A DNA stretch of 64,000 nt, taken from positions 3,377-67,376 of the forward strand of contig NZ_DAMCTG010000009.1 of NCBI RefSeq assembly GCF_032113835.1, in the 5' to 3' direction. The stretch comes from Achromobacter sp. GTDB taxonomy: Bacteria; Pseudomonadota; Gammaproteobacteria; Burkholderiales; Burkholderiaceae_B. The notes beneath the pieces are model-generated. The model was not told the DNA's origin and searched no databases. It worked only from the letters and a program-made list of their open reading frames with translations. The translations under genes and the position numbers were made by a program. This document shows, in pieces, positions 30,394 to 51,264 of the stretch (position 1 is its first letter; every line of letters starts with the position of its first letter).

Positions 30394-31272
30394 ATGGACT
30401 TTGAGATTCCCTCTTGCCTGACTGATCAGCCCGCCCTCTCAGAAGCGTATCTGGCATATCAATCAAGTAGACAAACGTTGAACGAATCGGGCCTGAAAGT
30501 GGCAGCGTGCGGTGTCTACAACGCAGGAAAAAGTTCATTATTGAATACGTTGGTGGACCGTTTCGACGCCGAAACGGAGGCTTTCAGGACCGGGGACGTG
30601 CGAGTTACCACGGAAGTTTCCGAGCTGAAATTCAATCAGCTGACGTTCGTCGACATGCCCGGCGTCGACGGTTCCTCGGAAGATGATGAAACCGCCTGGC
30701 AAGGCATTCTTCGCAGCGATTACTTCCTGTATGTCCACCGCCTTCGCGCCGTCGAGTTTGAGCAATCCGAGCTTGATTTCCTTAAGCGTCTGAAAGATGA
30801 GGTGGATGACATCGATTCACGGCTGGTACTCGTTATCAGCCAGATCGACGACGTCAGCAGCGACGAAGATGTGATTCGCAACACCGCCACCATCCGCGAC
30901 ACGTTTATCAAGGCGGCCGGTTTCGAGCCTGAACAGACTTTTTCCGTGTCGGTAACTCGATACGTAAAAGGGATGCGTGAAGGCAAGCAGGGGCTGACCA
31001 CTCGCAGCGGGATCCCGCCGCTAAAGCAATGGATTGACGTAATCAGCAGTCCTCCCGCGCAGGTCCAGTGGGAGCGTCTCCGCACCGATCGCCTAAATAG
31101 TCAGAGAGAAGCCTTGGCGGCGCAAATTCTTGCGCTCGCCGAGCAAGTGGACAGCGACATCCATGACGCAATGGAGAAGCGCCAATCGCGCCTGCGTTCG
31201 TTGGAAGAGGATATGCGAGGTCTGCTTCAAACAATCAAGGGCGCGTTGGCGCGCATTGATTCCCTAGCCTGA
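30394..31272 (+). CDS. Small dynamin-like/HSR1-type P-loop GTPase with C-terminal coiled coil
   Basis: G1 GVYNAGKS (30511-30534), G3 DMPGVDG, G4-like VISQID. The C-terminal third is helical and heptad-like (REALAAQILALAEQVDSDIHDAMEKRQSRLRSLEEDMRGLL). Confidence 0.8.
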   Translation: MDFEIPSCLTDQPALSEAYLAYQSSRQTLNESGLKVAACGVYNAGKSSLLNTLVDRFDAETEAFRTGDVRVTTEVSELKFNQLTFVDMPGVDGSSEDDETAWQGILRSDYFLYVHRLRAVEFEQSELDFLKRLKDEVDDIDSRLVLVISQIDDVSSDEDVIRNTATIRDTFIKAAGFEPEQTFSVSVTRYVKGMREGKQGLTTRSGIPPLKQWIDVISSPPAQVQWERLRTDRLNSQREALAAQILALAEQVDSDIHDAMEKRQSRLRSLEEDMRGLLQTIKGALARIDSLA

Positions 31273-31328
31273 CAAGGCACCTGCTCAGCGCCTTCCTCTC
31301 CTCAGGATCTTCCCAAAAGGAAAGTTTT

Positions 31329-31871
31329 ATGTTGCCCTTGCTTTTTGCCGGAGGTCTCGTGGCAGGCCTCGGAAAACTGATTTACGACGCAGTAACTTCC
31401 GATAGCGATTCTTCGCCTAGCTCTCCTTCGGTTGACGAGCAGGCAAAGTCGGCCCAGTCGCAACGAAAAAAAGAACTGCGAACTGAAGCCAGTAGACGAC
31501 TGCTGGCCGATACCGAGACGGCGGTAACGTTCCTGCTTGAGAAGCACGCAGTTCTCCTGACGGGTCGCGCAAAAACACCTGCAGCGCAAGTAACAGACGA
31601 ACCCGCACGCACACTAAATCCTGCAGCGAGCTGGCCTATGCCCACGGGAGTGTCGGGCTCCACCACAGGTTCCTCGACTGACGAGGACGTCCTCTCCATG
31701 CGCAACTTGCGTGACTTGAGCGGAGCCCGGCCGAGCAAAAAGGGATTCGACGCGCTGAAACCCTTAACCGATGAGTTGACTTACACGCAGGAATACCTGC
31801 AAGAGCGTAAGACCATCGCGAAAATGCGCAAACAGCGCGACGCACTTAGAACCCTTGCCGAGGCGCTATGA
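31329..31871 (+). CDS. Small membrane-anchored protein (N-terminal TM helix, disordered linker, C-terminal helix)
   Basis: MLPLLFAGGLVAGLGKLIY is a TM segment. It is followed by a Ser/Pro/Thr-rich region and a basic helical tail. AAGGAAAG precedes the ATG. The stop overlaps the next start (ATGA at 31868-31871). Confidence 0.65.
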   Translation: MLPLLFAGGLVAGLGKLIYDAVTSDSDSSPSSPSVDEQAKSAQSQRKKELRTEASRRLLADTETAVTFLLEKHAVLLTGRAKTPAAQVTDEPARTLNPAASWPMPTGVSGSTTGSSTDEDVLSMRNLRDLSGARPSKKGFDALKPLTDELTYTQEYLQERKTIAKMRKQRDALRTLAEAL

Positions 31872-33748
31872 AAAACAACCCCATGACGCGCAGACCCGAC
31901 CTTGCTGCCGACGACGAAAAGCGCGCAATGACCCGCGATGAATTTCTGCAGGTGTTTCGAAACCTCGCGGGCCGGTTTGAGGAGAATCAACAGAAAGCCT
32001 CTCAGACCGAACACTCCTTCTTTTCCGGTTTGAACACCTGCCGCGACCTCGCAGGCATCAACCCGTTTGAGTCCAGCAGACTTGACGACGACCACCCATT
32101 GCGTCAGCACCTCCATGGCGCAGTTGATCGGATCAAGGACGTGTTTGTAGCGTGGGATGAGACCATCGACAAACTCGAGACACACGCGACCTTCAAAAAG
32201 CAGATTGAAGATTCGCTGTTGGTTTTCGTATATGGCAAGGTCAAGGCCGGCAAGTCTTCGCTCGGCAACTACATTGCCCGGGGATGCACCAAACCTGTAC
32301 CGATGGCGGCCGGTGAGGCTGGCGCGCCCGTGTTTTTTGTGCAGGAAGGCCGCGAACTCACGGAAAAGGTGAGCGCCGAATCCATTCGTCGAGCGGGTGC
32401 CTTTAAGGTTGGAGAAGGTGAGACGACCAGCGCAATTCAGGGCTTTCAGTTACCCGGACTAACCTGGGTTGATTCTCCTGGTCTGCATTCCAAGCATGCG
32501 GAAAATGGCGAATTAGCGCAGAAGTATGTGGACGCTGCTGACCTGATCCTCTACCTCACAAATTCCATGGCGCCTTGTAAGCGCAGCGATCTGGAAGAGC
32601 TGAAGACGTTGGGGAGCAAAGAGCACAATCTGGCGGTCTTGATCACTGGTAGCGACCAGTGGATTGAGGATGAAGACGAGAATGGCGACCCGCTCAAAGA
32701 GCTGGCAATGAAGACGCAGACCGTTCGCGAACAACAGATCCATTATGTCCGCGACTCATTGCGAAAGCAGCACTGCGATGTCCAAAGCAAGTCAACCGGA
32801 GTCATGGACAAGACCTTGCAGCGCGCAAAAGTGCATTCGGTTTCGGTCGTCTACGCCGAAGAGCACCCTGATAGCGTCGGCATGCAGTCCAGCGGCATGG
32901 GAGCCATGTTGTACGACGTAGCGATGCTTGCCCAGAGCGCAGGCGTACGCGACAAGCTGGTCCGCCCGCTCAAAAATCTACGTCATTTCTTGAATGTTAT
33001 GCGGACTGCGCATTTGCCAAAGATTCAGTCCGCCCTCAACGGACTGACTGCGTCCATCGCCACGACGAAGAGCAAGGCTGAAACCGATGCGCGTCAACGA
33101 ATCCAAGGGATTGCACTGCGCATCGCTCCGGCCATCGATGCTTTGATCGAACAGCACGCAAGCGCCAAAGACAGCCGGGCATTCAAGACCGCGCTGGCGC
33201 AGGCGTATTCACGCTGGTTGGGCGAGGCCCGGGATTCCATAGCGGATGCATATGCAAATTCCCTCGGCGAACGTCTGACGCGCGCGATGGATTCCGCTAT
33301 TGACCTACTTCCCGACTTCGAGGACGTCAAAAAATCAATCCCGCGTCGCTCGACCGTGAACGCAAAGCGAGGCGCCGCATTGGGCGGCGCGCTGTCCGCA
33401 CTGGCAGCGCTGGCCGTACCGGGTGGCGTACTGCTAGCTGCTGGAGCGGCGGTCTTATCCTCCGCCCTGGGCGGGTTCGCAGGCAAAAAGATTGGCGCCA
33501 CGTTGGATGACACCGAGATTGCCGAAATGGTCATTGGCAACAACGCGAATGAGGTGGGTGCAAAAGCTCGCGCGGTGTTAAGCGAAAAATTCAGACGCGA
33601 AAGCGAAACCACGCTCACCAACTTGCAGTTGAGTTGCTATTCCGAGTTGGAAGCGTGGCTTTCCGGCCTGAACCGGGAGGTGAATCAGGTGACCGCAAGA
33701 ACCGAAGCGTTGTTGTCCGAATTGGACGCGCAACTAACCAACGCCTGA
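31868..33748 (+). CDS. Bacterial dynamin-like protein (GTPase + helical stalk + hydrophobic paddle)
   Basis: G1 GKVKAGKS (32234-32257), G3 WVDSPGLHS, G4-like LITGSD. A long helical region follows. A Gly/Ala-rich hydrophobic hairpin GAALGGALSALAALAVPGGVLLAAGAAVLSSALGGFAG (about 33371-33481) is typical of BDLP membrane paddles. Confidence 0.85.
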   Translation: MKNNPMTRRPDLAADDEKRAMTRDEFLQVFRNLAGRFEENQQKASQTEHSFFSGLNTCRDLAGINPFESSRLDDDHPLRQHLHGAVDRIKDVFVAWDETIDKLETHATFKKQIEDSLLVFVYGKVKAGKSSLGNYIARGCTKPVPMAAGEAGAPVFFVQEGRELTEKVSAESIRRAGAFKVGEGETTSAIQGFQLPGLTWVDSPGLHSKHAENGELAQKYVDAADLILYLTNSMAPCKRSDLEELKTLGSKEHNLAVLITGSDQWIEDEDENGDPLKELAMKTQTVREQQIHYVRDSLRKQHCDVQSKSTGVMDKTLQRAKVHSVSVVYAEEHPDSVGMQSSGMGAMLYDVAMLAQSAGVRDKLVRPLKNLRHFLNVMRTAHLPKIQSALNGLTASIATTKSKAETDARQRIQGIALRIAPAIDALIEQHASAKDSRAFKTALAQAYSRWLGEARDSIADAYANSLGERLTRAMDSAIDLLPDFEDVKKSIPRRSTVNAKRGAALGGALSALAALAVPGGVLLAAGAAVLSSALGGFAGKKIGATLDDTEIAEMVIGNNANEVGAKARAVLSEKFRRESETTLTNLQLSCYSELEAWLSGLNREVNQVTARTEALLSELDAQLTNA

Positions 33749-33808
33749 TATTCAATCGGGCGACACCGTGACGTCGGCTGCCCTTAGTTATTCCAAGACA
33801 TTACCATT

Positions 33809-35458
33809 ATGAAGACCGAAAACCCGCTAGTTCGCTTGCTCGATGACTTCTCTGAGATCCGTCCCGTCCTGGACTCCGTTTTTGAGGGGGACGCCAACGC
33901 GTTGGCGCGAGTAGCGCAGACCGCAGAAAAGTTGTCCAAAGACGCAAGGGAGGGACAACTCCAAACGCTGGTGTTCGGTCATTACAACGCGGGCAAATCA
34001 ACGTTCATCAATGCGTTGATGGGCGAGGAAGTTGCGCCCACGGGAGACGTACCGTTAACCGCACGCATCAATCCTTACGACTGGCATGGCCATCTACTCT
34101 TTGACTCACCAGGCATCGATGCACCGATCGATCATGAAATGATCACGGACGATTTCCTGCAACATCGGTGCAACGCCATCATCTTCGTGATTTCGACAGG
34201 TGGAGCGGTCGAGGAAGCGTCAACGTGGGAACGCCTGTGTTCATTCGTCAAGGACAAGAAGGCGGTACTTATCGTCATCAACGACAAGTCGGGCCTGGAT
34301 CTCAACGGAACCGAATTCGTGCGGATCCGGACGACGGTCTATCAGAATATGCAGTTGGCGGCAGCTAAGTTGGGCATGGAAGACCCAGCCGAGCATATCA
34401 ATGTAATTCACGTCAAGGCACAGACCGCACTCAAGGCACGACTGGAGAACAAGCCGACGCTGTTGGCGCGAACAGGTATCCAGGACGCTGAGGATGTATT
34501 GCGGAGATTCTTCAGTACGGCCACGGAGAAGATGCTGCGCTCGGACAGCGAGCGGGCGCGCAAACTGGTCAACGAAGCCATCGAGCGACTGGCGAAGCAA
34601 TCCGGTGACAGCGGCAGTATCGCGCTGACCGAATGCCGCAACAGGGTCGAGCAGGAGCGTACGCGCCTCGAACTCGCGCTTGTTGATGCAGTGCGAAGAC
34701 TCGTCGCGCGTGAAGTGCAAGAGACCCAAAACGCTTTGGCCCGTTTCGAAATGAACGATGCCGAACAGGTGAAGCAACGCCTCATTGAACACTTGGAGCA
34801 CTCGCAGGCGCGGATCCGGCAAGGGATTGAAAGGCAACTGCAAATCGAGTTTGAGAGCACCGATATCGTGGTCCACGACGCGGCCAAGTTGCTGTCCCAG
34901 TTGGTCACCAAGGGCAGCATGGGGTTCGACGATGTGGAGATGCGTGCTTCCGGATTTTCATATGACGGCGAATCCAGCAAATCCGGTGAAGCATCGAGTT
35001 CGGCTTGGTTCGATGCTTTCAAGTCGATTAATACCGAAAAATGGACAGAGGCGGGCATCAAGGAACTGCTGAAACAAGGCAAGGGCTGGTTCCCCAGCCT
35101 GTTTAAGGGAATTGGCCCCAAGACCATGGGGAAATGGGCGAGCACGGCCGGTCGGGCGGTCGGCCCCCTCCTGGCGATCGGCCAGGGAGCCTGGGAGCTG
35201 TATCAAGCCAGCCAGGAGGAAGCAGAGCACCGCGAGCGGCACCGCAAGTTTGTCGAACAGGTGATGGCAAGTGTTCGCCAGTCCTTCAGCGACGCGGTCA
35301 CCGAATACGAAGTGAAGATCAACGAAATCTCTAAAGGCGCCCTGACTCCCATCCTGGAAGCGTTGGACCAACGAGCGATTGAACTGCAATCGCGGAACGA
35401 AGCCCAGCAAGCGATGCAGGAACGTTTGGCAACTTGGACGCGAAAGCTCAACTATTGA
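33809..35458 (+). CDS. Bacterial dynamin-like protein (GTPase + helical stalk)
   Basis: G1 GHYNAGKS (33977-34000), G3 FDSPGIDAP, G4-like VINDKSG. The C-terminal half is predicted to be long helices. The hydrophobic segment (GRAVGPLLAIGQGAW) is much weaker than in the preceding protein. Confidence 0.85.
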   Translation: MKTENPLVRLLDDFSEIRPVLDSVFEGDANALARVAQTAEKLSKDAREGQLQTLVFGHYNAGKSTFINALMGEEVAPTGDVPLTARINPYDWHGHLLFDSPGIDAPIDHEMITDDFLQHRCNAIIFVISTGGAVEEASTWERLCSFVKDKKAVLIVINDKSGLDLNGTEFVRIRTTVYQNMQLAAAKLGMEDPAEHINVIHVKAQTALKARLENKPTLLARTGIQDAEDVLRRFFSTATEKMLRSDSERARKLVNEAIERLAKQSGDSGSIALTECRNRVEQERTRLELALVDAVRRLVAREVQETQNALARFEMNDAEQVKQRLIEHLEHSQARIRQGIERQLQIEFESTDIVVHDAAKLLSQLVTKGSMGFDDVEMRASGFSYDGESSKSGEASSSAWFDAFKSINTEKWTEAGIKELLKQGKGWFPSLFKGIGPKTMGKWASTAGRAVGPLLAIGQGAWELYQASQEEAEHRERHRKFVEQVMASVRQSFSDAVTEYEVKINEISKGALTPILEALDQRAIELQSRNEAQQAMQERLATWTRKLNY

Positions 35459-35474
35459 TCGATAGCGCCATTCG

Positions 35475-35510
35475 CCCCGATCCCCCTATAGCAAGGCGCG
35501 GTCATCGGGG
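35475..35510 (+). terminator. Weak hairpin between the GTPase module and the nuclease/helicase module
   Basis: CCCCGAT (35475-35481) pairs with ATCGGGG (35504-35510) and is followed by TTTA. The loop is large (22 nt), so this is only a weak candidate. Confidence 0.25.
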
Positions 35511-35639
35511 TTTACGCAGACGGATTCGCGTCGACGTCCCACTTCGGCAAGCTGCCAGAAAGGGCGTCGGGCGGACACATTGTCAGCGCAGTGCCGGACG
35601 CCCGTGCGTGCCGGTGTGATGAATCCATGAACAGAGCAG

Positions 35640-36956
35640 ATGACTATGCAGTGGGGTTTGTTGGGACCGGCGGCGCTGTCCGGAGAAAGGCGGACGAGGA
35701 CCTTGGGCATCGGGCGCGCTGTCCGGCGCTTTAATGAACTGGCCGTGCCGGGTACGGGTGGTGTCTGGTTCGGCAAGCAGGTCTTCCTTGCAATCCTGGG
35801 AGTCCGCGTGGCCGAACTGGCTCGCGACGCAAGAATGCCCGTTGGCAATATCGAATGCGCCAATGCGATCGAGGCGTTGGCATGCTGGCTTGGCTACAAC
35901 GAGAGCAAATGGGCGCCGCACCCGCGCTTGCGCGGCATCAACACATTACCTCGTGAACACGCCCTGGATTTTCGTACGTTGCGCCGCCCGGGCTTTTACG
36001 TTTCACAACCCACGCGCATGGCGGTTGGGCAAAGTCTGATGCCTCTGGGGTTGGCGGAGGGGCCTCGCCGGCGCTTCAACGCCCTAGCAACCACCGAGGC
36101 CGGCAGAAACTTGATCGCTTTGGCATGTGGCGACGGCGGGCGGCACGACATCGTGACGCAACTGCTGAACTGGGTGCAGGGAAAATCTGTCAGCTGGCCA
36201 CCGCGTTTCGTGAAGCTGCTCTCTCCTTGCGTGCCGCTCACACTCGCCGCCCGGGGACTGCTCCACTCTCAGTTTATTCTGGGGTCAGATAAAGAAGACG
36301 GCACACACAAGGATCGACGGCGCGCTGCGTTGCGATGGGTTGACGACCTGCGCAGTCACCCCCCTTCAGGGCCGCTGGGCTGGGAGGATCGGCCTGCAGC
36401 CATCGTCGATGACGCGCATTGGAAGGATTTACAGGCAGGCGCGCAACTCATGGCTTGTCGCGCGCAAGCCATAGTCGTGCTCGATGAGCTTGAGCGCAAA
36501 CTCGCCCTGTCTCCCAAAGAAATGCTACGCGTCGAAGAAGCGGCAGGAATGCTAGGCGACGAGCTTGCCGATCTAAAGGTGGCCGCTGATCGTTATCTAT
36601 CGTTTTCGCATCCCGATGCGGACGCCATGGCTTTTGGTCGCGAATGCGCCCTGCCTTCTACTTCCGATCGGCTCGAGCATCTGTTGCGCCGAGACGATCG
36701 GGTACTGCGGCTTGTTGCGCGCGAAGTCAAACCTGGACCAGCATTCCGCCGTGCGATGCGCAACGAAATCGCATCAGATCCGGCGCTGTCCGCGGATCCT
36801 GAAGACGCCGGCGTATCCGACGGCATCATCGACTGGCCCGCGAACCTATCGTTCCGAGTTCGCAACCTTTATGTGCTTAACCGAGATTTGCTCGAAGAAC
36901 CGAACGCGATGCGTAACGAGACCACAAACCAGATCTTCGTGGACGCCGAACTATGA
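35640..36956 (+). CDS. Hypothetical protein (no recognisable motif), first gene of the nuclease/helicase module
   Basis: 438-aa ORF. The stop overlaps the next start (ATGA at 36953-36956). I could find no catalytic or nucleotide-binding motif by eye. Confidence 0.7.
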   Translation: MTMQWGLLGPAALSGERRTRTLGIGRAVRRFNELAVPGTGGVWFGKQVFLAILGVRVAELARDARMPVGNIECANAIEALACWLGYNESKWAPHPRLRGINTLPREHALDFRTLRRPGFYVSQPTRMAVGQSLMPLGLAEGPRRRFNALATTEAGRNLIALACGDGGRHDIVTQLLNWVQGKSVSWPPRFVKLLSPCVPLTLAARGLLHSQFILGSDKEDGTHKDRRRAALRWVDDLRSHPPSGPLGWEDRPAAIVDDAHWKDLQAGAQLMACRAQAIVVLDELERKLALSPKEMLRVEEAAGMLGDELADLKVAADRYLSFSHPDADAMAFGRECALPSTSDRLEHLLRRDDRVLRLVAREVKPGPAFRRAMRNEIASDPALSADPEDAGVSDGIIDWPANLSFRVRNLYVLNRDLLEEPNAMRNETTNQIFVDAEL

Positions 36957-38944
36957 AGGCGCCCTCCTTGTTGCACTTGTTCGACGCGCCGGACGACTAC
37001 AACGGCCTGTTTGGCTGGGTATGCGGCTATTCTGGCGACGATCTGTTTCTCAACGAGGCGGCTGAGCGATTTACCCGTCGCACGCATGCGCAGCGCGCGA
37101 AGGCGGGCGAGATCTCATTGGGATTGATCCTGGATCCGCAGCATGAACCTCTATCGCTGCTCGATGTGCCAGGCGTCGCCCACCTTCCCTTGCGCGACGC
37201 GAATCTCCAGCCGTTCAAGCTGATGCACGCCAAGGTCGCCCTACTGGGCTTCCGCAACGCAGACGCCGATCAATGGCGGCTGCGCTTGATCGTCTCGACC
37301 GGCAACTGGACCCGACAGACCGTTGAGGAAAGCCTGGACCTTGCGTGGACGATCGAAGTGTCTTCTGCGGACCTGAACGCGGAGGCGCGTGACCTGTCAT
37401 TGCGATGCGCCGACGTAAACGCTGCCTCTGAATTTTTGAACTGGCTCGCCTCGCATTTCGATACCCGCATCCTTGAAGCCATGACGGAAAACCCGTGCGC
37501 GGCGGATCGTATCAGCCGGTTCAACGGGTGGGTCAGCCAATGCGCATCTCGGTCGCAGGGGCATACCCCCCGGTTTTTCGACAATCGCTCGCACGGCCTT
37601 CTTGAACAGCTTCCCGCCTTGATCGAGAAGCACGCCGGCAAGGTTCGCCGCAACTATCTGGCCATGGCATCGGGCTTCTTCGAGGATTCGCCTCAAGCTG
37701 GAGCGGACAGCCCGGCCGAGCAGGTTCCCACTGTGCTGGCCAGTATTGAAGATGCATTACGCGCACAAGACATGCTGACACGCAGCGCTCTGGTCGAGAT
37801 CTACGTCAACCCGGATGGTTGCCAAGCGGTAGCCCGCTGTCTGGATGCGATGACGAAGCGCCAGTGGAGGGTCGTGGAGCCGGGACAACCCGAACAAGTG
37901 TTTCGCGCGGACGTCCGACGCACGCTGCACGCGAAATTTCTCCTGGGCGGCAACGATGTCGGCGATGCCTGCAGTAGCGGCTGGCTCTATCTGGGATCGG
38001 GGAATCTTACCCGTCCCGGCTTCGTCGAGCGTGCGCGTCGGGCGCGCGGCAACCTCGAAGCGGGGGTTGTTTTTTCCTTGCCAAGAACGCTGTGGTTGCC
38101 GTCCAAGGATCCCTCGGTACCGGCAATGACCGTATTATTGCCAATCCAGTCTGATGGCGTTCCCATAACGGTCACTGACCATCTCAAGGCAGGCGACCCC
38201 ATGCCGGAGCTCAACGGATCTTTTGTTGCCGGCCCGATAGCCTATTTGCAATGGATCCCAACGGAAGACGCAGGGCTATTACGCGCACCTGGCCGCAGCA
38301 ACTTGGACTTTGACGTGCTGGGTCCGGATGGGCAAACCTGCCCCAGGCTCGGACTGGACTGGCTGTGGCCAGGGGGGGCGCCTCGCCAGGCGAGGTTGCG
38401 TTGGGGAGTGCACGGGAATCACCAGCAGCAAGTGCCGGTGGTCGACCAATATGGCCGGATCGCAGGCGCGGAACTACCCGGACTGGCACTGCAGGATCTC
38501 GCAGCCCAATTGCTCAATTTTCCTGCGATTGACGATGGCGATGACGACAATGGCGACGGCGACGCCGATCAAGATCCGTCAAACCAGCGCCACCCCGACG
38601 CGCGCAACTCGGCCAGTCCTCCCCCCACGGCAGCGATACGGACGATGATGACGCAATTAGAACTCATCGCTCAGAAGCAGGTTCAAGTGGCAGTCGCCGA
38701 CTGGTCGGCATGGTGCCACCGACTTGAGCAGATCCTGTGCCAGGCGCGGGAGAGCACCGCGCTGGCCGATTTTCGTCGTCTGAAGATCAATCCGCTCAGT
38801 TGCCTGCTGCAAGCGGCCTTCCGCCCCGTCTACGCGAACGATGCCCGCACACCAAGCGGTCGGCGCTACGAAGAAGCATTGGAACGCGTCGCGGAATCGT
38901 GGGGCGTGCGGAGTGGATACCTGGCCTTTGGAGAGGATGAATAA
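36953..38944 (+). CDS. Phospholipase D-family (double HKD) protein, nuclease-like
   Basis: HKD motif 1: LMHAKVALLGF ... LIVSTGNWT (37226-37312). HKD motif 2: LHAKFLLGG ... LYLGSGNLT (37928-38008). A C-terminal region of roughly 300 aa is unassigned and includes an acidic D/G tract. The stop overlaps the next start (TAATG at 38942-38946). Confidence 0.85.
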   Translation: MKAPSLLHLFDAPDDYNGLFGWVCGYSGDDLFLNEAAERFTRRTHAQRAKAGEISLGLILDPQHEPLSLLDVPGVAHLPLRDANLQPFKLMHAKVALLGFRNADADQWRLRLIVSTGNWTRQTVEESLDLAWTIEVSSADLNAEARDLSLRCADVNAASEFLNWLASHFDTRILEAMTENPCAADRISRFNGWVSQCASRSQGHTPRFFDNRSHGLLEQLPALIEKHAGKVRRNYLAMASGFFEDSPQAGADSPAEQVPTVLASIEDALRAQDMLTRSALVEIYVNPDGCQAVARCLDAMTKRQWRVVEPGQPEQVFRADVRRTLHAKFLLGGNDVGDACSSGWLYLGSGNLTRPGFVERARRARGNLEAGVVFSLPRTLWLPSKDPSVPAMTVLLPIQSDGVPITVTDHLKAGDPMPELNGSFVAGPIAYLQWIPTEDAGLLRAPGRSNLDFDVLGPDGQTCPRLGLDWLWPGGAPRQARLRWGVHGNHQQQVPVVDQYGRIAGAELPGLALQDLAAQLLNFPAIDDGDDDNGDGDADQDPSNQRHPDARNSASPPPTAAIRTMMTQLELIAQKQVQVAVADWSAWCHRLEQILCQARESTALADFRRLKINPLSCLLQAAFRPVYANDARTPSGRRYEEALERVAESWGVRSGYLAFGEDE

Positions 38945-41535
38945 TGGATTGGAACGCAGTCGCGTCGACACTGATCGAGTCTGCCGAGAAAGCCGAGGGA
39001 TCCGCAGGTGGCGCATGGTCATTGAATGATGGCCAACGCCGCAGCGTGATGGCGCTAGCCCGTCGCATAACGAAAAATGGCGTGGTTATTGCCGACGAGG
39101 TCGGCATGGGAAAAACCCGCATCGCCGTGACCCTGGCCCGCGCCGTCATCGAACAAGGTGGGCGGGTTGCTGTGCTCGTACCCCCTGGCCTGGGATTTCA
39201 ATGGCAGCAGGAAATGCACGAGGGCGGCGTGGAATGTCCACCCTTGCTAAGAAGCCTGGAACAGTATTTCAAGCCCTGGGACATCAGCCAGGGCGTCTCG
39301 CCGTCATGGTCAACGCAGGATGTCGTACTACTGTCACATCAAATCGCAAACTGGCGTATTGGCGAAGGTACCCGCGCCCCATACTGGTCCTTGCTGCCGC
39401 TGTTGTACGCCACATGGCGCAAGGTCTGCGATGGCCGCTATCCCAGACATTTCCACGCAGCGCCCGAACTATCCGATCCGCGGATTCGTGCTGCGGCCGA
39501 AGACATCGTGGCTTGGGCAGAGCGAGAAGGAGGTATTCCCGTCGATTTCCTGAATAGGCTCGTGACAGAGGCGCCGTGGCCAGCGGCGATGAACTCTGGC
39601 GAGTACCGCTCGGGTACCGATCTTCGTATAGCGCTGGAACGAGCCGTGGGTATCGGCTTAGGATTTTTCGATCTCATCATCATCGACGAGGCGCACAAGA
39701 GCCGGGGCGACGCGACGGGGCTATCGCGAGTACTGAATAATGTCGCTCTGACTCCCGCCGACGGTCGCAAGCTCGCCATGACGGCCACGCCCGTTGAACT
39801 TGATGCCGAGCAATGGCAGGACGTGCTGGACCGCATTGCCATTGAGACAGCAGACGGCCGGTTCTTGCCCGATCATGAGCAAACGTCGCTTGCTATAAGC
39901 AGCTATGAAAAGGCAGTCGACGCCGTCAAAGCGCAGCCGAACGACGCCGAAAAGAGGGCGAACTTTCGGGTCGCGGCGCGCGAGTTCGAAAAGACGCTGG
40001 CTCCGTATCTGGTTCGGCGCGACAAGCGCGAATCCCAATCTGTGCAGACATTCGCGCTTCACTCGGGCTTGTCACCTCATGCGTATCGTCGAGAACGTCA
40101 GCTCATCATTGATCCAACGACGCTTTCACCCGCTTGGCAGCAAGCGATATGCGCGGCGGAAGCGCTATCCGTCGCCGCTTCGCAAGGAACCTTACCAGCA
40201 GCGCAACGGTTACGGCTGACGGTGGGCAGCGGCCACGGCATCGCCAAAGTCATTGATCAGCTTCAGCAGGATGACATTGAAGATTCCGAGCAAATGGCGG
40301 CTGACCGTTCGGCCGAGAATGTGACGAATTCCGAGTCGTCGAGATCCCAGCGCGTGGATTGGTGGCTCAGCGTGTTGCGTCAGACCTTGACGAACAAGAA
40401 CGCACTTCTCGACCACCCCGCCATACAAATCGCGGTTCAAGAAATTGAGAATGCCGATGCCAGGGGTGAAAAGGTTCTGGTTTTTGGCCGCTACACCGCT
40501 CCCATGAAAATGCTGGTCGACTTGTTGAATGCTCGTCAGATGCTCAGGGCCTTGCGGGACAACCGCCCGTGGCCTCAAAGCGGCGTGCGTGAGAGCGAAC
40601 ACGACGCGGTGAAAGCGGCGCAGCGTCAGTTGAAAATTCTGTCGGATGAGTCGATCGACAGTATCAATGCCCAATTACAGATTCAGTACGAGGGCTTAGA
40701 GGCCCGTCGCCAGACGGCCCGCGACCACCTGTTCAATAACCTTCGCGCCGGGCTTGAAGCGCATCCCGACAACAGCGCCGCAAAGCTCCTGTTTGGCGCA
40801 TTCGTGAGCAATCCCGTTGGACAGGCTGCCGTTACGCGGGCGGTGATGGAGTTACTTGCCCGCGATGAAGCGAGTCCGCAGGAATGGGCCGACGCCTTCG
40901 TGAACCTCGTCGACGCGGCCATGGACCGCGAGGACATTGACGAGCGCGGCGAAGCCGGTCTGAATGAGGCGGGAGCGGCCGCTTTGTGGCCGAAACTGGC
41001 GGAACGCTTTGACGACGAATATCGCAACCCGCAGGGTGGATTTGCGCGATTGATGTACGGCGAAACAAAGCATGTGACCCGCCGATTGCTGCAGCTGGCT
41101 TTCAATCGTCAGGATAGCTTTCCCAGGGTGCTGGTGGCGCAATCTGTTGTTGGACGCGAAGGGCTGAATCTGCATAAGGCGTGCCGCACAGTTCTGCTGC
41201 TGCACCCTGAATGGAATCCAGCGGTGGTTGAACAACAGATTGGGCGGGTGGACCGGCTGGGCAGCCGATGGGAACAGTTGCTTGACGCGGCGATCGCAAA
41301 GGGCGTTCGAGGCACAGATCTACCGCGCATCGAAATCCTGCCCATCGTTTTCCAGGGCACATATGACGAGCATAACTGGATGGTTCTGAAATCGCGATGG
41401 GATGCGTTGAGGGCGCAACTTCACGGCACCGTGCTTCATGTACCTGATGTTAATGAGGATCCCCTGCTGCGTGAGCTCGCAAATGAAATCAATGGCGCGG
41501 CACCAAATTTTTCCCCTAAACCGCCCCCTATTTGA
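38944..41535 (+). CDS. SNF2-family helicase/translocase
   Basis: Motif I ADEVGMGKT (39094-39117), motif II IIIDEAHKSRG (DEAH at 39685-39696). C-terminal RecA lobe: KVLVFGRY, VLVAQSVVGREGLNLH, motif VI EQQIGRVDRLG. Confidence 0.9.
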   Translation: MDWNAVASTLIESAEKAEGSAGGAWSLNDGQRRSVMALARRITKNGVVIADEVGMGKTRIAVTLARAVIEQGGRVAVLVPPGLGFQWQQEMHEGGVECPPLLRSLEQYFKPWDISQGVSPSWSTQDVVLLSHQIANWRIGEGTRAPYWSLLPLLYATWRKVCDGRYPRHFHAAPELSDPRIRAAAEDIVAWAEREGGIPVDFLNRLVTEAPWPAAMNSGEYRSGTDLRIALERAVGIGLGFFDLIIIDEAHKSRGDATGLSRVLNNVALTPADGRKLAMTATPVELDAEQWQDVLDRIAIETADGRFLPDHEQTSLAISSYEKAVDAVKAQPNDAEKRANFRVAAREFEKTLAPYLVRRDKRESQSVQTFALHSGLSPHAYRRERQLIIDPTTLSPAWQQAICAAEALSVAASQGTLPAAQRLRLTVGSGHGIAKVIDQLQQDDIEDSEQMAADRSAENVTNSESSRSQRVDWWLSVLRQTLTNKNALLDHPAIQIAVQEIENADARGEKVLVFGRYTAPMKMLVDLLNARQMLRALRDNRPWPQSGVRESEHDAVKAAQRQLKILSDESIDSINAQLQIQYEGLEARRQTARDHLFNNLRAGLEAHPDNSAAKLLFGAFVSNPVGQAAVTRAVMELLARDEASPQEWADAFVNLVDAAMDREDIDERGEAGLNEAGAAALWPKLAERFDDEYRNPQGGFARLMYGETKHVTRRLLQLAFNRQDSFPRVLVAQSVVGREGLNLHKACRTVLLLHPEWNPAVVEQQIGRVDRLGSRWEQLLDAAIAKGVRGTDLPRIEILPIVFQGTYDEHNWMVLKSRWDALRAQLHGTVLHVPDVNEDPLLRELANEINGAAPNFSPKPPPI

Positions 41536-41609
41536 TACGCGAGGCGCCGCGCAAAGCCTGATTCCACCCCTCGCGCGGCAAAATTCTTTTGCGCAAACTG
41601 GAACATACG

Positions 41610-42578
41610 ATGACGCGTCTCGAGTTGGTCGACCATCTTGCAATACAGTTTGCCCACGCGCAGAAATCAGAACGCTGGGCGATGTACCGTCTGATTGCGC
41701 CAGTGGTTGACCATGCCAACGCCAGCATGGGATTACGCGATTATTTTGAGTTCAATCAGACCAGCCTGCACGGCACGTCGCAATCAGTCGATATCGCGCT
41801 GCTTGACAACTCGGGCTTGCCCCGAGTCATGATTGAGGCCAAGCGCCTTGATCGCGCCATCGCCGCAGAACAGATTGCGAAGTATCTGCCCGCAGATACG
41901 CGCGGCATCGTCACAAACGGGCTGCATTGGGTCTTGTGTCTGAACGGAAGAGACAAGCTGGTCACATTGTGCGATGCCAAGAGCCGTGAAATGCGCCCCC
42001 ATGCGTTGGATGAAATCGTCGCATTCATTCGCGGCGAGTCGCTATTGCCTCAGGAATGGCGAAGCCAACAGGATGGCTACGTCGCATCGTTCATTAGACC
42101 GGAACGGCTAACCAAAACGGCATCTGCGCAGCGGGCCGTCAACGCCGTGACAGTTGTGCGCGAGATGCGCGGCTTTCGCGCTGAACTGGACCGGCTTCCC
42201 GGAATCTCCCCGCTGGACCGAGTCCTGCTCACAGCGATGGCGCAAGCGTTTGAGGAACTGGGGCAGATATCTTCTACGCTGCGAATCGAATTTCGCAAGA
42301 CGAGGGTCAGCATTTTCGGCGAGTGCCTGGACGGCAGGCGCATTGCGCGTCTTGAGTTAGGCAAGCGCCAGCCAGACGTCCTGATCCTTACGGAGCTTGT
42401 TCAGGGTGACGAGATTCTCTGCGGCCTGGCACAACCCGCGCCGCATGACAAAGGGCCGCACATGCGAAGGTACCGGTTGAGTCATGACATACAAGCTGCT
42501 TCGTTCGGTCGTGCGATGGCGGCATTGCTGAACGTTTGTGACAAACCTAATAAAAATCGCGCTGTGATGTCGGCATAG
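41610..42578 (+). CDS. PD-(D/E)xK nuclease-fold protein resembling the N-terminal domain of type I restriction HsdR
   Basis: SVDIALLDNSGLPRVMIEAKRL (D at 41790, ExK at 41835-41843), followed by AAEQIAKYL ... GIVTNGLHWVL. This matches the D...ExK...Q..Y...TNG..W layout of HsdR_N-type domains. ATG 41610 is preferred over the TTG at 41589. Confidence 0.65.
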   Translation: MTRLELVDHLAIQFAHAQKSERWAMYRLIAPVVDHANASMGLRDYFEFNQTSLHGTSQSVDIALLDNSGLPRVMIEAKRLDRAIAAEQIAKYLPADTRGIVTNGLHWVLCLNGRDKLVTLCDAKSREMRPHALDEIVAFIRGESLLPQEWRSQQDGYVASFIRPERLTKTASAQRAVNAVTVVREMRGFRAELDRLPGISPLDRVLLTAMAQAFEELGQISSTLRIEFRKTRVSIFGECLDGRRIARLELGKRQPDVLILTELVQGDEILCGLAQPAPHDKGPHMRRYRLSHDIQAASFGRAMAALLNVCDKPNKNRAVMSA

Positions 42579-42634: not shown

Positions 42635-44119
42635 CTACTTCCTGGCTACCCGTTCGACCTTCAAGTCCACATTCCGCCCGTTAATCAGTGCAGTGGCTTC
42701 CTTGATCTGATAATCGGCCTCGAACTCGCAGAACTCCTTGGTCTTCATCGGCACCAGGGTGCTCGAACTGAACGAATCCCATGCCCGGCCATCCAGGCCT
42801 TCGTTCATCGTATTCATGCCAAACGGACTGAAAGCCAACGTGCGCTGCGTCGTCGCGCCCTGGTCGTTCTTCAATTCGACCGTGACGCGCAGATTGGCGA
42901 TTTCACTGAGTTTGTCGGTGGTGACGACAAAATGCGGTTCGCAGGCCAAGGCGCCGTCGTTGCCGCCGTGGTACGTCGACTTATGCAGCAGGCGCAGCGT
43001 GGGCGCCGCTTTGCCAGCCTGTTTGCGCTGGTCCAGATCGCTTTTGCAATGGGCCAGGAATTTGGCGTCGTCCTGCGCATCCGGCTGATGGTTGCGGCGC
43101 TCCTGACGATATTGCAGGGCCTTCTTGCAATCGGTCTTCACCGACTGGCCGTTGTAGTAGATCCAGCTCAGGAATCTTGGTGCACGGGCTGAACCCTGCT
43201 CAATCGCCTCTTCAAACAGAGTACGCGCGCGGGCGTAATCGACCGGAACGATTTCGCCCAGGTAGTAGATTTCGCCCAGATTGACCAAGGCATCCCGGTC
43301 GCTTTGCGCCGCCGCGCGCTCGAACCATGACACGGCGACTGCCGGGTCGCGATCCACGCCCCACTTGCCTTCTACGTAGGCAAGGCCTAGAAGATTCTGC
43401 GAGTGCGGCTCGCCGGCCTCCGCCGCGCGTTGCCACCACTTGAAGGCTTCGGCGTCCTTTTTCTCGACCTGCGAATAGCCGAAGTTGTAGAGGCTACCGA
43501 CCTGAAAGAGCATCCCGGGTTCTTTATCCCGCTCGGCCCAAACCCGCGCCAAGCGCAGCGTGTCCAGTTTGGTGAAGCCGATGCGCGCCATCATCGTGCG
43601 GGCGTCGGAGGAGGCAGACCCGACATGACGTCGCAGGTATTCGATGACCGGCAGCCGCATTTCGACGTCGGTTTCGGCTTTGGCCTTGCCCTCGTAGACG
43701 ATGTGGCGCTGGCGCTCCATCTCCTTGACGTCGTCGAGGTTGTCGAAGTCGTCCTTGGCGATGAGGCCGATGTAGCGTTCAGCGATGCTGGCGTCCTTGT
43801 CGATGCCGATGCCGTACTCGAAGAAATAGGCGGCGTTGGCGCACCCGTATTGGCCGCCCTGATGGCACGCCAGCGCGTAGTTGGCGATGGCCAGTTTGAC
43901 GTCGCGGGCGACGCCCACGCCGTGTTCGTACATGAAACCTAGCGCCATGAGCGCGTCAAGCTCCTTGTCTTTGGCGAGGTCTTGAAGCGCTTTCAACGCT
44001 GAGGCGTCTTGCTGGACGGCGCGGTCATAGAGGCGTTCGGCCAGATGGTCTTGCTGGGCGGCGGCCGAGAAGGTGGATCCCACCAGCACTGCGGCGGCGA
44101 ACTTCAAATATTTGGACAT
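42635..44119 (-). CDS. Secreted Sel1-like (SLR/TPR) repeat protein with unrelated C-terminal domain
   Basis: Signal peptide MSKYLKFAAAVLVGSTFSAAA. Multiple Sel1 repeats are present (LGFMYEHGVGVARDVKLAIANY, AAYFFEYGIGIDKDASIAERY, LGLAYVEGKWGVDRDPAVAVSWF, LGEIYYLGEIVPVDYARARTLF). The last roughly 120 aa are non-repeat. Confidence 0.8.
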   Translation of the reverse strand: MSKYLKFAAAVLVGSTFSAAAQQDHLAERLYDRAVQQDASALKALQDLAKDKELDALMALGFMYEHGVGVARDVKLAIANYALACHQGGQYGCANAAYFFEYGIGIDKDASIAERYIGLIAKDDFDNLDDVKEMERQRHIVYEGKAKAETDVEMRLPVIEYLRRHVGSASSDARTMMARIGFTKLDTLRLARVWAERDKEPGMLFQVGSLYNFGYSQVEKKDAEAFKWWQRAAEAGEPHSQNLLGLAYVEGKWGVDRDPAVAVSWFERAAAQSDRDALVNLGEIYYLGEIVPVDYARARTLFEEAIEQGSARAPRFLSWIYYNGQSVKTDCKKALQYRQERRNHQPDAQDDAKFLAHCKSDLDQRKQAGKAAPTLRLLHKSTYHGGNDGALACEPHFVVTTDKLSEIANLRVTVELKNDQGATTQRTLAFSPFGMNTMNEGLDGRAWDSFSSSTLVPMKTKEFCEFEADYQIKEATALINGRNVDLKVERVARK

Positions 44120-44319
44120 CGACTGCTTTCCTGTGAACAACGGCGGTCGCTGTGGCGCAAACGACCGGGGCGATTGTATCTGCGCCATCTGTCTTGCCGG
44201 TTTCGCGCAGATCAAGGAGACCGCATTGGTCCTGGATTCAGGCTGGCCGCGCGGCGGCGCACCATTTGGTGCGATAGACTCCCGGCTTGTTTGGGATTGA
44301 ATCAGCAGGAGTTCACGCA

Positions 44320-44763
44320 ATGAGCAGCATTTTTCCAGACGATCTGTGGGCGGTGGGCGAAGCCCGCATCAACGGTCTGCCGGTCGTCATTCGCTTTCGC
44401 ACCGGGCTGCCGCCCGAGTCCGATCGCCAGGTCAACGACAACCTGATCATCATCACCTGGGCGTATCAGGGCATCGAGACCGGCATGCCGAACGACGAAG
44501 ACAAGCTGCGCACCAATGCGTTTGAAGAAGCCATCGAACAGGGTTTCGAGAATTCGGACGCCGGCGTGCAGGTGGCATGCCTGACCGGTAATCATCAGAA
44601 AGAGTGGCGCTACTTCACGCCGAATGTCGAAGCCTTCCTGGATGCGTTCAACACGTGCCTGGCGGGACATCCGGTCTATCCGATTGAACTGCGCATGTTC
44701 AAGGACCCTGACTGGAATGCCTTGTCGGGATTGCAGCCCGAAGGATCTGAGCAGCTGCATTGA
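44320..44763 (+). CDS. DUF695-like protein
   Basis: 147 aa. The start WAVGEARINGLPVVIRFRTGLP ... LIIITWAY resembles DUF695 family proteins. CAGGAG precedes ATG 44320. Confidence 0.6.
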   Translation: MSSIFPDDLWAVGEARINGLPVVIRFRTGLPPESDRQVNDNLIIITWAYQGIETGMPNDEDKLRTNAFEEAIEQGFENSDAGVQVACLTGNHQKEWRYFTPNVEAFLDAFNTCLAGHPVYPIELRMFKDPDWNALSGLQPEGSEQLH

Positions 44764-48954: not shown

Positions 48955-49634
48955 GCACCGGCGCCGTCCGGCCCGGTGTCCCACCCCATGCGCAGCGCGG
49001 TCGCGAATCCGCCTTCGACGCGCGAGTATGGCCGAGCGCTTGTACTGACGCGCGGCAGGCAGGACCATGCGATGTGCGCCCCGCCGGCTTCCAGCTTGTC
49101 GACCAGGGCCTGGTCCTCGCTACACGTGAGCGCCGCAAATCCGCCGATGCGCCGGTACGTGTGCGCGGCGATGCCCAGGTTTGCGCCATGCACGTGCCGG
49201 TGACCGTCGCGGTCGTGGTAGTGCGCGGCGAACACCTGGCGGGCGCGCTGCGCAAACTCGCCATGCGCATCCCAGCCCGTGACCGATACCGTGCCGCACA
49301 CCACTTCCGCATTCAGTGAAAGCTGGTCGGCCAGCCAGCCGGGCGACACGCTGGTGTCGGCGTCGGTGAAGGCAAGCCAGCGCGCGCCGGCATTGAGCAG
49401 ATGTTGCGCGCCCGCCCCGCGCGCCACGCCGACGTTGCGCGCCTGGACCATCAGAAGATCCACCGGCCAGCCCGTCGCAAGGCGCGCCGTCTCATCCTCG
49501 CAGTGATCCAGCACCACGACGATACGAACCGATTCCCGGCCAAGACGCGGATGGCGGGATGCGCGCATGACGGCTCGCAGGCACTCTTTGATGTGGCGCT
49601 CCTCGTTGTGCGCCGGAATGCATACGCCGATCAT
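48903..49634 (-). CDS. Family 2 glycosyltransferase
   Basis: IGVCIPAHNEERHI ... VVVLDHCEDET ... FTDADT (DxD) matches the GT2 pattern. Confidence 0.85.
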   Translation of the reverse strand: MIGVCIPAHNEERHIKECLRAVMRASRHPRLGRESVRIVVVLDHCEDETARLATGWPVDLLMVQARNVGVARGAGAQHLLNAGARWLAFTDADTSVSPGWLADQLSLNAEVVCGTVSVTGWDAHGEFAQRARQVFAAHYHDRDGHRHVHGANLGIAAHTYRRIGGFAALTCSEDQALVDKLEAGGAHIAWSCLPRVSTSARPYSRVEGGFATALRMGWDTGPDGAGAQADRDEEGRAPSCHCL

Positions 49635-50236
49635 GAAGGGCTTCCTTGTTGGGGTTGTCTGCGCCAGACGTCCAGGCGGAACTCGTCTTCTACGTGATGC
49701 ACGCGGCGCGATAGCCCGGGCAACGCGCCGATGGCCGCGTGCAGCGCGTCCGTGTTCTGGAGACGGTCATCGAAATCCGGCCGCCAATGGCAGGCCACGA
49801 TCTCGCCATCCTGCGCAAGCGATGCATCGACGGCGCTCAGAAACCTGCACAGCGCGACGCCATCCAGGTAATACGCCACCTCCGACAGCACGATGAGGTC
49901 AAAGCCGCCCGCCGGGGTCTCGGGCCACTGCCGTGGCAGGTCCAGCGACAGGACTTGCACGTGGTCCATGCCTTCGCCGGCGACGCGGGCGCGGCAACGC
50001 TCGGCCGCGACCGGCGCGGCGTCAACCGCGCAAACCTGCGCGCAGCGCAGCGCCAGGCACCGGGTCAGCTCCCCCGTGCCGCAACCCGGCTCGAAGGCAT
50101 GGCGATACTGTTCGCGGCCCAGGGCCGCCAGCAGCAGGCCGCGCTTGCGGCGTTCGTACCAGGCGCTGGCCACGCGCCACGGGTCGGGATCCGCCTGGTA
50201 CAGCCGTTCGAAATGGTCCGCGGCTACAGAGTCCAT
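49631..50236 (-). CDS. SAM-dependent methyltransferase (NodS-like)
   Basis: DPWRVASAWYERRK ... FEPGCGTGELTRCLA (motif I) ... DLIVLSEVAYYL. The start MDSVAADH at 50236 overlaps the upstream gene by 13 nt. The stop overlaps the GT2 start by 4 nt. Confidence 0.85.
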   Translation of the reverse strand: MDSVAADHFERLYQADPDPWRVASAWYERRKRGLLLAALGREQYRHAFEPGCGTGELTRCLALRCAQVCAVDAAPVAAERCRARVAGEGMDHVQVLSLDLPRQWPETPAGGFDLIVLSEVAYYLDGVALCRFLSAVDASLAQDGEIVACHWRPDFDDRLQNTDALHAAIGALPGLSRRVHHVEDEFRLDVWRRQPQQGSPS

Positions 50237-51264
50237 GGCGCACCTTCGTCGCTGAGCACCGCTTGCCCATGTGCGGCCTGGTCGCGCTCCGCATGGCTCT
50301 GCCGGATGAACACGGGCAGGTCGGCCATCACCTGCGCAAAGTCCGCGTCGCGGCACAACGGCCCCGCGCCCAACGCCCGCGCGGCCCGCTCCAGCACCAC
50401 GGACGCAGCCGCTTCCACGGCCAGGCGCGCGCGGGCGCAGGCCAACGCGCACGCCTCCCGCGGATGCGCGTCGATCTCGGCGGCAGTCTCGCGCAACACG
50501 GCCCGAGCCTGCGCCAGGGCCACGTCGACGGCGCCAAGATGCGCCAGGCGATGGGGGTCGGCGGCATTCCTGGGCAAGGCCCGGTGCAACGCCTGGGCGA
50601 TGTGCAGCAGCCCGCCGTACCAGCAAGCCGCGATGCCCGCCCCGCCGTGCAGAAAACCGGGGCGATGCACGTACGCGCCCGGCCCGCCCACGAGCGAGCA
50701 GGGCACGTCGCGAAAGATCACGTCCACGCTGGCCGACGCGCGCATGCCCACGGCATGCCAGCCGGCATCGGTCACCTGTACGCCCTCCTGATCCATTGCC
50801 ACCGCAGCCAGACACGCCTCGCCCGCCGGATTCCAGCCGCTCACGATCGCGTGGGTCACGGCCGCCGCGCCGGAACACCACGCCTTGACGCCCTGCAGCA
50901 CTATCGTGCCGTCGGGCTGCGGCGTGATCTGCACGCGATGGTCCGGCGGCTCCGCGCACCACACCGCCCAGCGGCTGTCGGCGGGTGCGCCGGGCGCATG
51001 CAGCTCGGCCAGAATGGCGAGCGCATCGGTGTGTCCTTCATACAGCTTGGCCAGACTCAGGTCTGCCGCAGCCACGCGGGCCAGCGCGCGCCATCGATCC
51101 AGAGTTCGGCCGGACGCCGGCAGGGGAAGTTGATCGCATCCCTGCTCTACAAGGACGCGCAGCCATCGCCCGGGATCCAACGGCGCGTGGGTGTGGGATA
51201 GCACCTCATTCAATTGCTGGGGCGCGGAATGCCGTTGAGGTGACGGGTCTGGACGTTCGGTCAT
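50224..51264 (-). CDS. Acyl-CoA dehydrogenase-fold protein
   Basis: Middle beta-domain and C-terminal helical-domain patterns are present (LQGVKAWCSGAAAVTHAIV ... WHAVGMRASASVDVIF ... GGAGIAACWYG). Start at MTERP. Confidence 0.7.
   Translation of the reverse strand: MTERPDPSPQRHSAPQQLNEVLSHTHAPLDPGRWLRVLVEQGCDQLPLPASGRTLDRWRALARVAAADLSLAKLYEGHTDALAILAELHAPGAPADSRWAVWCAEPPDHRVQITPQPDGTIVLQGVKAWCSGAAAVTHAIVSGWNPAGEACLAAVAMDQEGVQVTDAGWHAVGMRASASVDVIFRDVPCSLVGGPGAYVHRPGFLHGGAGIAACWYGGLLHIAQALHRALPRNAADPHRLAHLGAVDVALAQARAVLRETAAEIDAHPREACALACARARLAVEAAASVVLERAARALGAGPLCRDADFAQVMADLPVFIRQSHAERDQAAHGQAVLSDEGAPWTL

Follow-up and report, generated by a model that had tools for sequence, protein, structure and literature searches.

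The DNA analyzed in this study is a stretch of 64,000 nucleotides (nt) from the genome of an Achromobacter sp. (contig NZ_DAMCTG010000009.1, positions 3,377 to 67,376 of the forward strand), here called the window, and our subject is a set of co-directional genes within it that an earlier note had proposed to be a four-gene, methylase-less defense module. We called these genes g1 to g4. The first, g1 (35640-36956, + strand), encodes a protein of 438 amino acids (aa) whose predicted fold has no match and which we propose to be a sensor or adaptor subunit, in a position analogous to that of ZacA in the Azaca defense system. It is followed by g2 (36953-38944, +), which encodes a 663-aa protein predicted to be a two-lobed phosphodiesterase or nuclease of the phospholipase D (PLD) superfamily with Tdp1-like HxK…N motifs, and by g3 (38944-41535, +), whose 863-aa product is a predicted SNF2-family ATP-dependent DNA translocase. 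The last gene, g4 (+), runs to position 42578 from either an ATG at 41610 or a TTG at 41589, and encodes a stand-alone PD-(D/E)xK protein of 322 or 329 aa, respectively; it is a neighbor that lies outside the conserved system formed by the first three genes, the trio.

All four open reading frames (ORFs) were confirmed, and they represent real genes because many full-length homologues exist. The genes of the trio overlap, stop codon to start codon, at both junctions: ATGA joins g1 and g2 (36953-36956, +), and TAATG, preceded by GGAGAGG, joins g2 and g3 (38942-38946, +). Both overlaps were read directly in the sequence and are as the earlier note gave them, as is the spacing of the fourth gene, for which it had estimated ~70 nt and which is 74 nt when measured between the stop codon of g3 and the ATG of g4. 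A terminator scan of that gap found no terminator-like hairpin. Upstream of g1, a gap of 181 nt (35459-35639, +) follows the last of the dynamin-like genes and is presumed to hold the promoter region of the trio; a promoter scan found no sigma-70 consensus in it. The GC content is 0.60 in the trio, 0.57 in g4 and 0.56 in the upstream dynamin genes, compared with 0.62 in the left flank and 0.68 in the right flank, in keeping with the low-GC island in which the genes had been placed. No tRNA gene, integrase or convincing att-like direct repeat was found flanking this island.

Comparison with other genomes revealed that the conserved, co-evolving unit is the trio g1-g2-g3. A g1-family alignment search of one genome per species (185,579 species representatives) yielded 128 stretches with a g1 relative, and 80 loci were fetched. 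Co-occurrence was counted by tblastn of the four window proteins against 79 loci, with a near-identical Achromobacter metagenome-assembled genome (MAG; locus L001) left out. Where there was room on the contig, g2 followed g1 co-linearly in 67 of 69 loci, g3 came next in 61 of 62, and g4 followed the trio in none of 56. The exceptions to the co-occurrence of g2 and g3 were visibly damaged copies: a Zoogloea MAG in which g2 is truncated (L069, 11307-13081) and Desulfovibrio desulfuricans SFAD67, in which a g2 fragment stands alone and g3 is gone (L080, 11251-11724). In Iodobacter arcticus (L024, 13275-14681), the tblastn match was confined to g3 residues 443-858, with ~1.4 kb of unmatched sequence between g2 and it. 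A 4-nt start/stop overlap was the modal arrangement at both trio junctions in related loci, and the pairwise-distance matrices of g1, g2 and g3, compared over 47 loci, were correlated (r = 0.87-0.91, Mantel p = 0.001). It is on account of this strict co-occurrence, the recurring overlaps and the correlated distance matrices that the trio is regarded as the conserved unit. The catalytic motifs of g2 and g3 were also kept, in 58-62 of 61-63 orthologues.

The hosts of the trio are spread patchily over five phyla, and comprise Beta-, Gamma-, Alpha- and Zetaproteobacteria, Desulfobacterota, Planctomycetota, Acidobacteriota and Nitrospirota. Across these host groups, identity to the window protein was roughly flat (35-47 %), which fits horizontal spread. 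The trio is also present on conjugative plasmids. In the plasmid collection, g1 and g2 matched exactly the same 7 records, and the trio was complete on all three plasmids examined by tblastn (3/3), from Pantoea, Leisingera and Desulfosarcina. In databases, its members are named "hypothetical" or carry the generic label "phospholipase D family", and full-text searches of the literature on PLD + SNF2 + unknown-protein systems, Tdp1-like defense proteins and PDC-M27 found no description of the trio.

The survey therefore bore out the recurrence of g1-g3 outside this genome (67/69, 61/62) and spoke against that of g4 (0/56), and with it fell the proposals that all four genes form one module and that a single system unites two nuclease folds. 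The identification of g4 itself as a stand-alone PD-(D/E)xK protein was sound. Its motif comprises D61 (nt 41790-41792) and E76-A-K78 (nt 41835-41843; numbering from the ATG), was invariant in 20 homologues, and is accompanied by a weak Pfam HSDR_N match (4.5e-4) that is also precomputed for several homologues. The g4 family numbers 78 clusters of ~310-aa proteins with a conserved C-terminal region; a sequence search found no PDB relative of g4, and no PADLOC model represents the family. The gene adjoins the trio only in the window and in the Achromobacter MAG L001, which is 95-97 % identical. Its relatives elsewhere are solitary (L081-L084, L090, L091) and occur in unrelated contexts, near Wadjet-like genes in Ralstonia, CBASS in Pseudoalteromonas, an AAA_13 ATPase, ScoMcrA/Tn7-like cargo and, in one case, metabolic genes. 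Other Achromobacter species with trios 73-76 % identical to that of the window have no g4, and sugar-metabolism genes or BREX lie downstream instead; indeed, what follows g3 varies from locus to locus almost without exception. Judged by these sequence comparisons, g4 is a putative independent, single-gene PD-(D/E)xK nuclease that adjoins the trio by chance in this Achromobacter lineage, and its family is possibly a candidate single-gene defense nuclease. A gene for a 561-aa Sel1-repeat protein (42635-44320, - strand) converges on g4 inside the lower-GC stretch.

The AlphaFold2 (AF2) model of g2 had a predicted local distance difference test score (pLDDT) of 83 and a predicted template modeling (pTM) score of 0.86. 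It shows a PLD core and then a beta-rich domain, which an acidic disordered linker connects to a helical domain at the C terminus, so that the C-terminal region singled out in the earlier note for a fold check consists of beta-rich and helical domains behind a Tdp1-like core. The linker (38534-38620, residues ~528-555) is an acidic low-complexity segment, DDGDDDNGDGDADQD…, with very low pLDDT, and is variable among orthologues. Two sets of residues, H92/K94/N118 (nt 37226-37234 and 37304-37306) and H326/K328/N351 (nt 37928-37936 and 38003-38005), were invariant among orthologues. In each motif, HxK is followed 25-26 residues on by (T/S)GN, and there is no Asp at K+5, as in the "HKN" motif of the Tdp1 type. 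The "double HKD" label that g2 had been given is thus right as to the two motifs, H92/K94 and H326/K328, but imprecise as to their kind.

Foldseek searches with the g2 model gave human Tdp1 as the best match (E 9e-10, template modeling score ~0.5 on the Tdp1 length), together with the PLD-like lobes of PPK1, and small HKD nucleases were not among its significant structural matches. Pfam matches among 30 g2 orthologues were weak, and were to PLDc_2 in 25 of them and to Tyr-DNA_phospho (PF06087) in 17 (best 1.7e-5); g2 of the window itself had no match to the latter. The sole PADLOC match of g2 was ZacB (E 8.5e-10, 36 bits), over profile positions 108-335 of 586, a match at the level of the superfamily rather than over the full length. 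The matched region covers both catalytic motifs, and ZacB was likewise the sole PADLOC match of two divergent g2 orthologues (4e-9 and 5.5e-7; 27-36 bits overall).

The motor motifs of g3 were readily located, and the assignment of this protein to the SNF2 family was confirmed. They are a Walker A motif, GMGKT, at residues 54-58 (nt 39103-39117), DEAH at residues 248-251 (nt 39685-39696) and motif VI, QQIGRVDR, at residues 764-771 (nt 41233-41256), with motifs I, II and VI kept in 61-62 of 63 orthologues. ResIII and Helicase_C matched above the Pfam threshold and SNF2-rel_dom just below it, and a profile search of PDB sequences returned SNF2-family structures only (Snf2, SMARCA5, RapA, ISWI, Rad54). 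The best PADLOC matches were to PDC-M27C (2e-21) and DrmD (4e-17), with ZacC lower at 1e-10, all of them weak and partial. The ZacC match of g3 in the window covered profile positions 596-901 of 1019; over the different versions of g3, the ZacC model matched at 1e-10 to 1e-14 and was outranked by PDC-M27C, DrmD and BrxH. The NCBIfam scores were 80 bits for DrmD against a cut-off of 610, 47 for DpdE against 500, and 52 for the PLD-helicase model NF042964 against 1100, the last of these a match on the helicase g3 only.

The g1 family, which an exhaustive profile search extended to 517 clusters at 50 % identity, was as featureless to our searches as to the earlier note, which could recognize no motif in the 438-aa protein. 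No Pfam, PADLOC or NCBIfam match was obtained for g1, 33 further family members matched nothing meaningful, and a profile search of PDB sequences found nothing. The AF2 model (pLDDT 81, pTM 0.80) is all-alpha, and Foldseek searches with it against PDB and BFVD gave nothing with an E-value below 0.8. Two features were invariant within the family: many Arg residues and, in an N-terminal segment for which disorder is predicted, a WGLLGP motif. The WGLLGP segment could conceivably act as a docking peptide, and the arginines could form a nucleic-acid-binding surface. All g1 homologues are labeled "hypothetical protein" by NCBI, and not DUF6361.

Pfam, PADLOC and NCBIfam scans of the four proteins and their neighbors gave no full-length system assignment, so that, as had been anticipated, the genes find no clean place in a known system. 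No DNA methyltransferase, specificity subunit or DUF1998 gene was detected among the island genes scanned, which agrees with the earlier view that this is neither a classical restriction-modification system nor DISARM, and no methyltransferase cluster recurred beside the trio in the 79 loci. The only methyltransferase-like gene in the vicinity lies outside the island (49631-50962, -) and encodes a NodS-like S-adenosylmethionine-dependent methyltransferase; this does not belong to a DNA methyltransferase family and a link to the trio is unlikely.

The surroundings of the trio in the 79 other loci were rich in defense genes. Among 118 proteins encoded within 4 kb of it, a PADLOC scan found WYL regulators (14), IetA-like AAA proteins (6), LeoA (4, best E 2e-171), DrmD, BrxH, DpdE and others. 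In at least 11 loci, the gene directly upstream, on the strand of the trio, encoded a WYL+WCX regulator, and BREX lay directly downstream of the trio in Achromobacter JUb104. In the window, four co-directional genes (30394-35458, +) directly precede the trio; three encode dynamin-like GTPases that match PADLOC LeoA/LeoBC (Eleos), and the fourth is a 180-aa ORF with no match. Dynamin/LeoA genes also adjoin the trio in Achromobacter aegrifaciens (L088) and 4 other loci. We regard these Eleos-type genes as a system of their own that shares the island with the trio.

Two other kinds of neighbor recurred. An ATPase of ~700 aa with two AAA domains, matching the IetA and TRIP13 models, was encoded within a few kb of the trio, on its upstream side, in roughly one quarter of the loci (~20; e.g., L086 3900-6998, L012 5364-9971, L087 3506-6851), often with a WYL+WCX regulator and sometimes without a protease partner. 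Rather than making up an ietAS system of its own, this ATPase may be an optional module with a regulatory or accessory role. In other Achromobacter species, genes for a RecD-like helicase, an AddB-like PD-(D/E)xK protein and an AddA-like UvrD-nuclease lay directly upstream of the trio (L088 2342-9908, L089 13-7642). An AddAB-like pair (PD-(D/E)xK + UvrD) was found upstream on an alphaproteobacterial conjugative plasmid (L085 1252-7001) and in L027 (3664-9483) as well, and on the Leisingera plasmid the stop and start codons of the AddAB-like module overlap into g1. The AddAB/RecD-like module is absent from the window.

The arrangement of the trio resembles that of Azaca, which comprises a DUF6361 protein (ZacA), a PLD nuclease (ZacB) and a superfamily 2 (SF2) helicase (ZacC); in vitro, T4 DNA is cut only when each of the three proteins is present and ZacC has its Walker A motif, and the system gives strong, selective protection against T4 (bioRxiv 10.1101/2025.07.10.664194). 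From the observed gene structure, co-occurrence and co-evolution, catalytic motifs, fold assignments, lack of a methylase and defense-rich neighborhood, we infer complex formation, the roles of the subunits, their target and a defense phenotype. It is reasonably probable, in our judgment, that g1-g3 (35640-41535) encode an ATP-dependent nuclease system of three subunits, without a methylase, by which phage and/or plasmid DNA is restricted in an Azaca-like manner. The trio is most likely an undescribed Azaca-like system, a function that we infer as above.

We hypothesize that one translationally coupled mRNA would give rise to the three proteins in a fixed ratio, and that these would assemble into a complex. 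The SNF2-type motor, g3, would load on double-stranded DNA and translocate along it, driven by ATP. Target discrimination or licensing would fall to g1, the Arg-rich, all-alpha protein with the new fold. Since no methyltransferase protects self DNA, the cue for discrimination would have to be a property of the invader, the candidates being base hypermodification, which has been suggested for Azaca and T4, and unusual DNA ends or structures. The two HxK…N lobes of g2 would form one complete PLD-type active site, which would cut the DNA backbone via a phosphohistidine intermediate.

Several observations weigh against this interpretation. Pfam DUF6361 did not match g1 or the 33 other family members at E-values of up to 1-10, and the PADLOC ZacA model did not match 24 g1-family members or two divergent plasmid versions at permissive thresholds; the putative sensor role of g1 was assigned by elimination. 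The motifs and modeled fold of g2 appear to have more in common with Tdp1, a repair enzyme, than with HKD nucleases of the classical kind (Nuc, BfiI), and for this reason its endonuclease activity is not guaranteed. The recurrent AddAB-like and RecD-like neighbors and the WYL regulators would also fit a role in DNA damage or repair. The trio family was not found on phage genomes (INPHARED) or IMG/VR viral contigs, which is neutral for defense but removes one support, and no report of experimental protection by the family was found in the literature.

Among the alternatives, the idea that g1-g4 are one four-gene system with two nucleases can draw on the co-direction of g4 with the trio, its position 74 nt downstream, the lack of a terminator-like hairpin in the gap, and the persistence of the arrangement in the 95-97 % identical Achromobacter MAG. 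It is largely refuted by comparative genomics and we consider it very improbable: g4 was present in 0/56 other trio loci and is missing from the Achromobacter species with 73-76 % identical trios, its family (78 clusters) is solitary beside unrelated systems, and the gene after g3 varies in almost every locus. That the trio is a remnant or variant of a DISARM, BREX, Dpd or type I/III system after the loss of its modification genes seems extremely improbable. The best NCBIfam/PADLOC helicase matches of g3 are indeed the DrmD, BrxH and DpdE models, but the DrmD and DpdE scores are far below their cut-offs, no DrmA, DrmB/DUF1998, PglZ, BrxC or methyltransferase gene is conserved beside the trio in 79 loci, and a compact trio recurring across phyla is unlike a decayed remnant. 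A DNA-repair or genome-maintenance module, in which a Tdp1-like phosphodiesterase would strip adducts from DNA ends after delivery by the SNF2 translocase, has more in its favor, as the best fold matches of g2 are to Tdp1, 17/30 orthologues weakly match Tyr-DNA_phospho, and the motif is of the HKN type without Asp. In addition, several lineages have AddAB-like and RecD-like genes directly upstream of the trio, and DNA-damage responses are another setting in which WYL regulators are known. We nevertheless judge this explanation to be quite improbable. This is because housekeeping repair genes are expected to be vertically inherited and syntenic, whereas the family is rare and patchy (128 stretches among 185,579 species representatives), is carried by plasmids and variable islands, and has mostly defense genes as its immediate neighbors.

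The two remaining alternatives keep the defense function and differ as to kinship with Azaca. In one, the trio would be an independent defense family built around a g1-licensed, Tdp1-like phosphodiesterase, with a kinship to Azaca that goes no further than shared superfamily folds, and would attack a feature of DNA ends or adducts rather than a sequence or base modification. Candidate features would be protein-linked or chemically blocked phage termini and relaxase-bound transferred strands. The recurrence of AddAB-like and RecD-like end-processing partners would be accounted for as well, and we rate this reading as distinctly unlikely. In the other, the trio would be Azaca itself, in the form of a distant subtype in which g1 is a ZacA diverged beyond recognition by hidden Markov models (HMMs), g2 is ZacB and g3 is ZacC. 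The gene order matches, the protein sizes are similar and both lack a methylase, with ZacB the sole PADLOC family for g2 and two divergent orthologues, and ZacC matching g3 at 1e-10 to 1e-14. Against this, the ZacA HMM and Pfam DUF6361 had no match in 24 + 10 + 2 family members at permissive thresholds, NCBI does not label the g1 homologues DUF6361, the ZacB match amounts to 27-36 bits over profile positions 108-335 of 586, and g3 scores higher with PDC-M27C, DrmD and BrxH. Membership in Azaca is therefore unlikely in our estimation.

If the trio does protect its hosts, in the Azaca-like manner that we favor, a widespread and unannotated family, present in five or more phyla, would join the nuclease-NTPase class of immune systems. 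Its architecture has a named precedent in the PLD + SF2 systems of the Azaca type, and its first subunit is without a known fold. Because it has no recognizable fold or domain, g1 would be a candidate for a new, methylation-free way of telling foreign from self DNA. As a bacterial, operon-embedded relative of the Tdp1 branch, g2 raises the question of the chemistry of immune PLDs. The unit to clone is three genes, not four.

Comparison with known systems places the trio among those that couple a PLD protein to a helicase-like motor. Like the eukaryotic tyrosyl-DNA phosphodiesterase 1 (Tdp1), g2 has a PLD fold of two lobes in a single chain, carries two HxK…N motifs and lacks the motif Asp. Unlike Tdp1, with which it shares ~12 % identity, it has an extra 250-aa C-terminal region (beta-rich and helical domains) and shares its operon, situated in defense islands, with an SNF2 motor; the likeness seen here is one of fold and motif, and any phosphotyrosyl substrate of g2 would be hypothetical. 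The SauUSI-type type IV or "PLD-helicase" proteins (NF042964, PADLOC PLD_Helicase) resemble the trio in that they, too, join a PLD nuclease to an SF2 ATPase and a target-recognition module and need no methylase, but these functions are fused in one polypeptide, as opposed to three proteins in the trio. Class 1 DISARM (DrmD, DrmC, DrmA/DrmB, DrmMI) likewise has an SNF2-like helicase and a PLD-family protein in one locus; the trio differs in that g2 matches no DrmC model, the DrmD score of g3 is far below threshold, and DrmA, DrmB (DUF1998) and the methyltransferase are neither in the island nor recurring beside the trio, for which reason DISARM was rejected. Type I/III restriction-modification was rejected as there was no cognate methyltransferase or specificity subunit in the island or conserved in the 79 loci, and BREX, Dpd and the SauUSI-type fusion were rejected as each fails a defining feature. 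Of the two systems that the earlier note had named as nearest, Mokosh (an Upf1-like superfamily 1 helicase, MkoA, with a PLD protein) was also set aside, since no Mko model matched g1-g3 at E <= 0.01 and g3 is of the SNF2/SF2 type, whereas Azaca, with ZacB as the sole PADLOC match of g2 and the same gene order, was well chosen.

The Azaca system is reportedly due to Millman et al. 2022, and the characterized example, BmAzaca, comes from a Bacillus; the trio, in contrast, was found here only in Gram-negative phyla. As in Azaca, the trio is a three-gene, methylase-less operon in the order uncharacterized protein, PLD protein, SF2 helicase, with similar protein sizes, with ZacB as the only PADLOC model to match g2, and with a nuclease-NTPase logic expected for both. 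It departs from Azaca in that HMM searches find no DUF6361/ZacA signature in g1, the matches to ZacB and ZacC are weak and partial, g3 is closer to the DrmD- and BrxH-type SNF2 models than to ZacC, and g2 has Tdp1-like HxK…N motifs. Overall, we do not assign the trio to Azaca but consider that, by analogy, it would work like Azaca, of which it may be a very distant relative.

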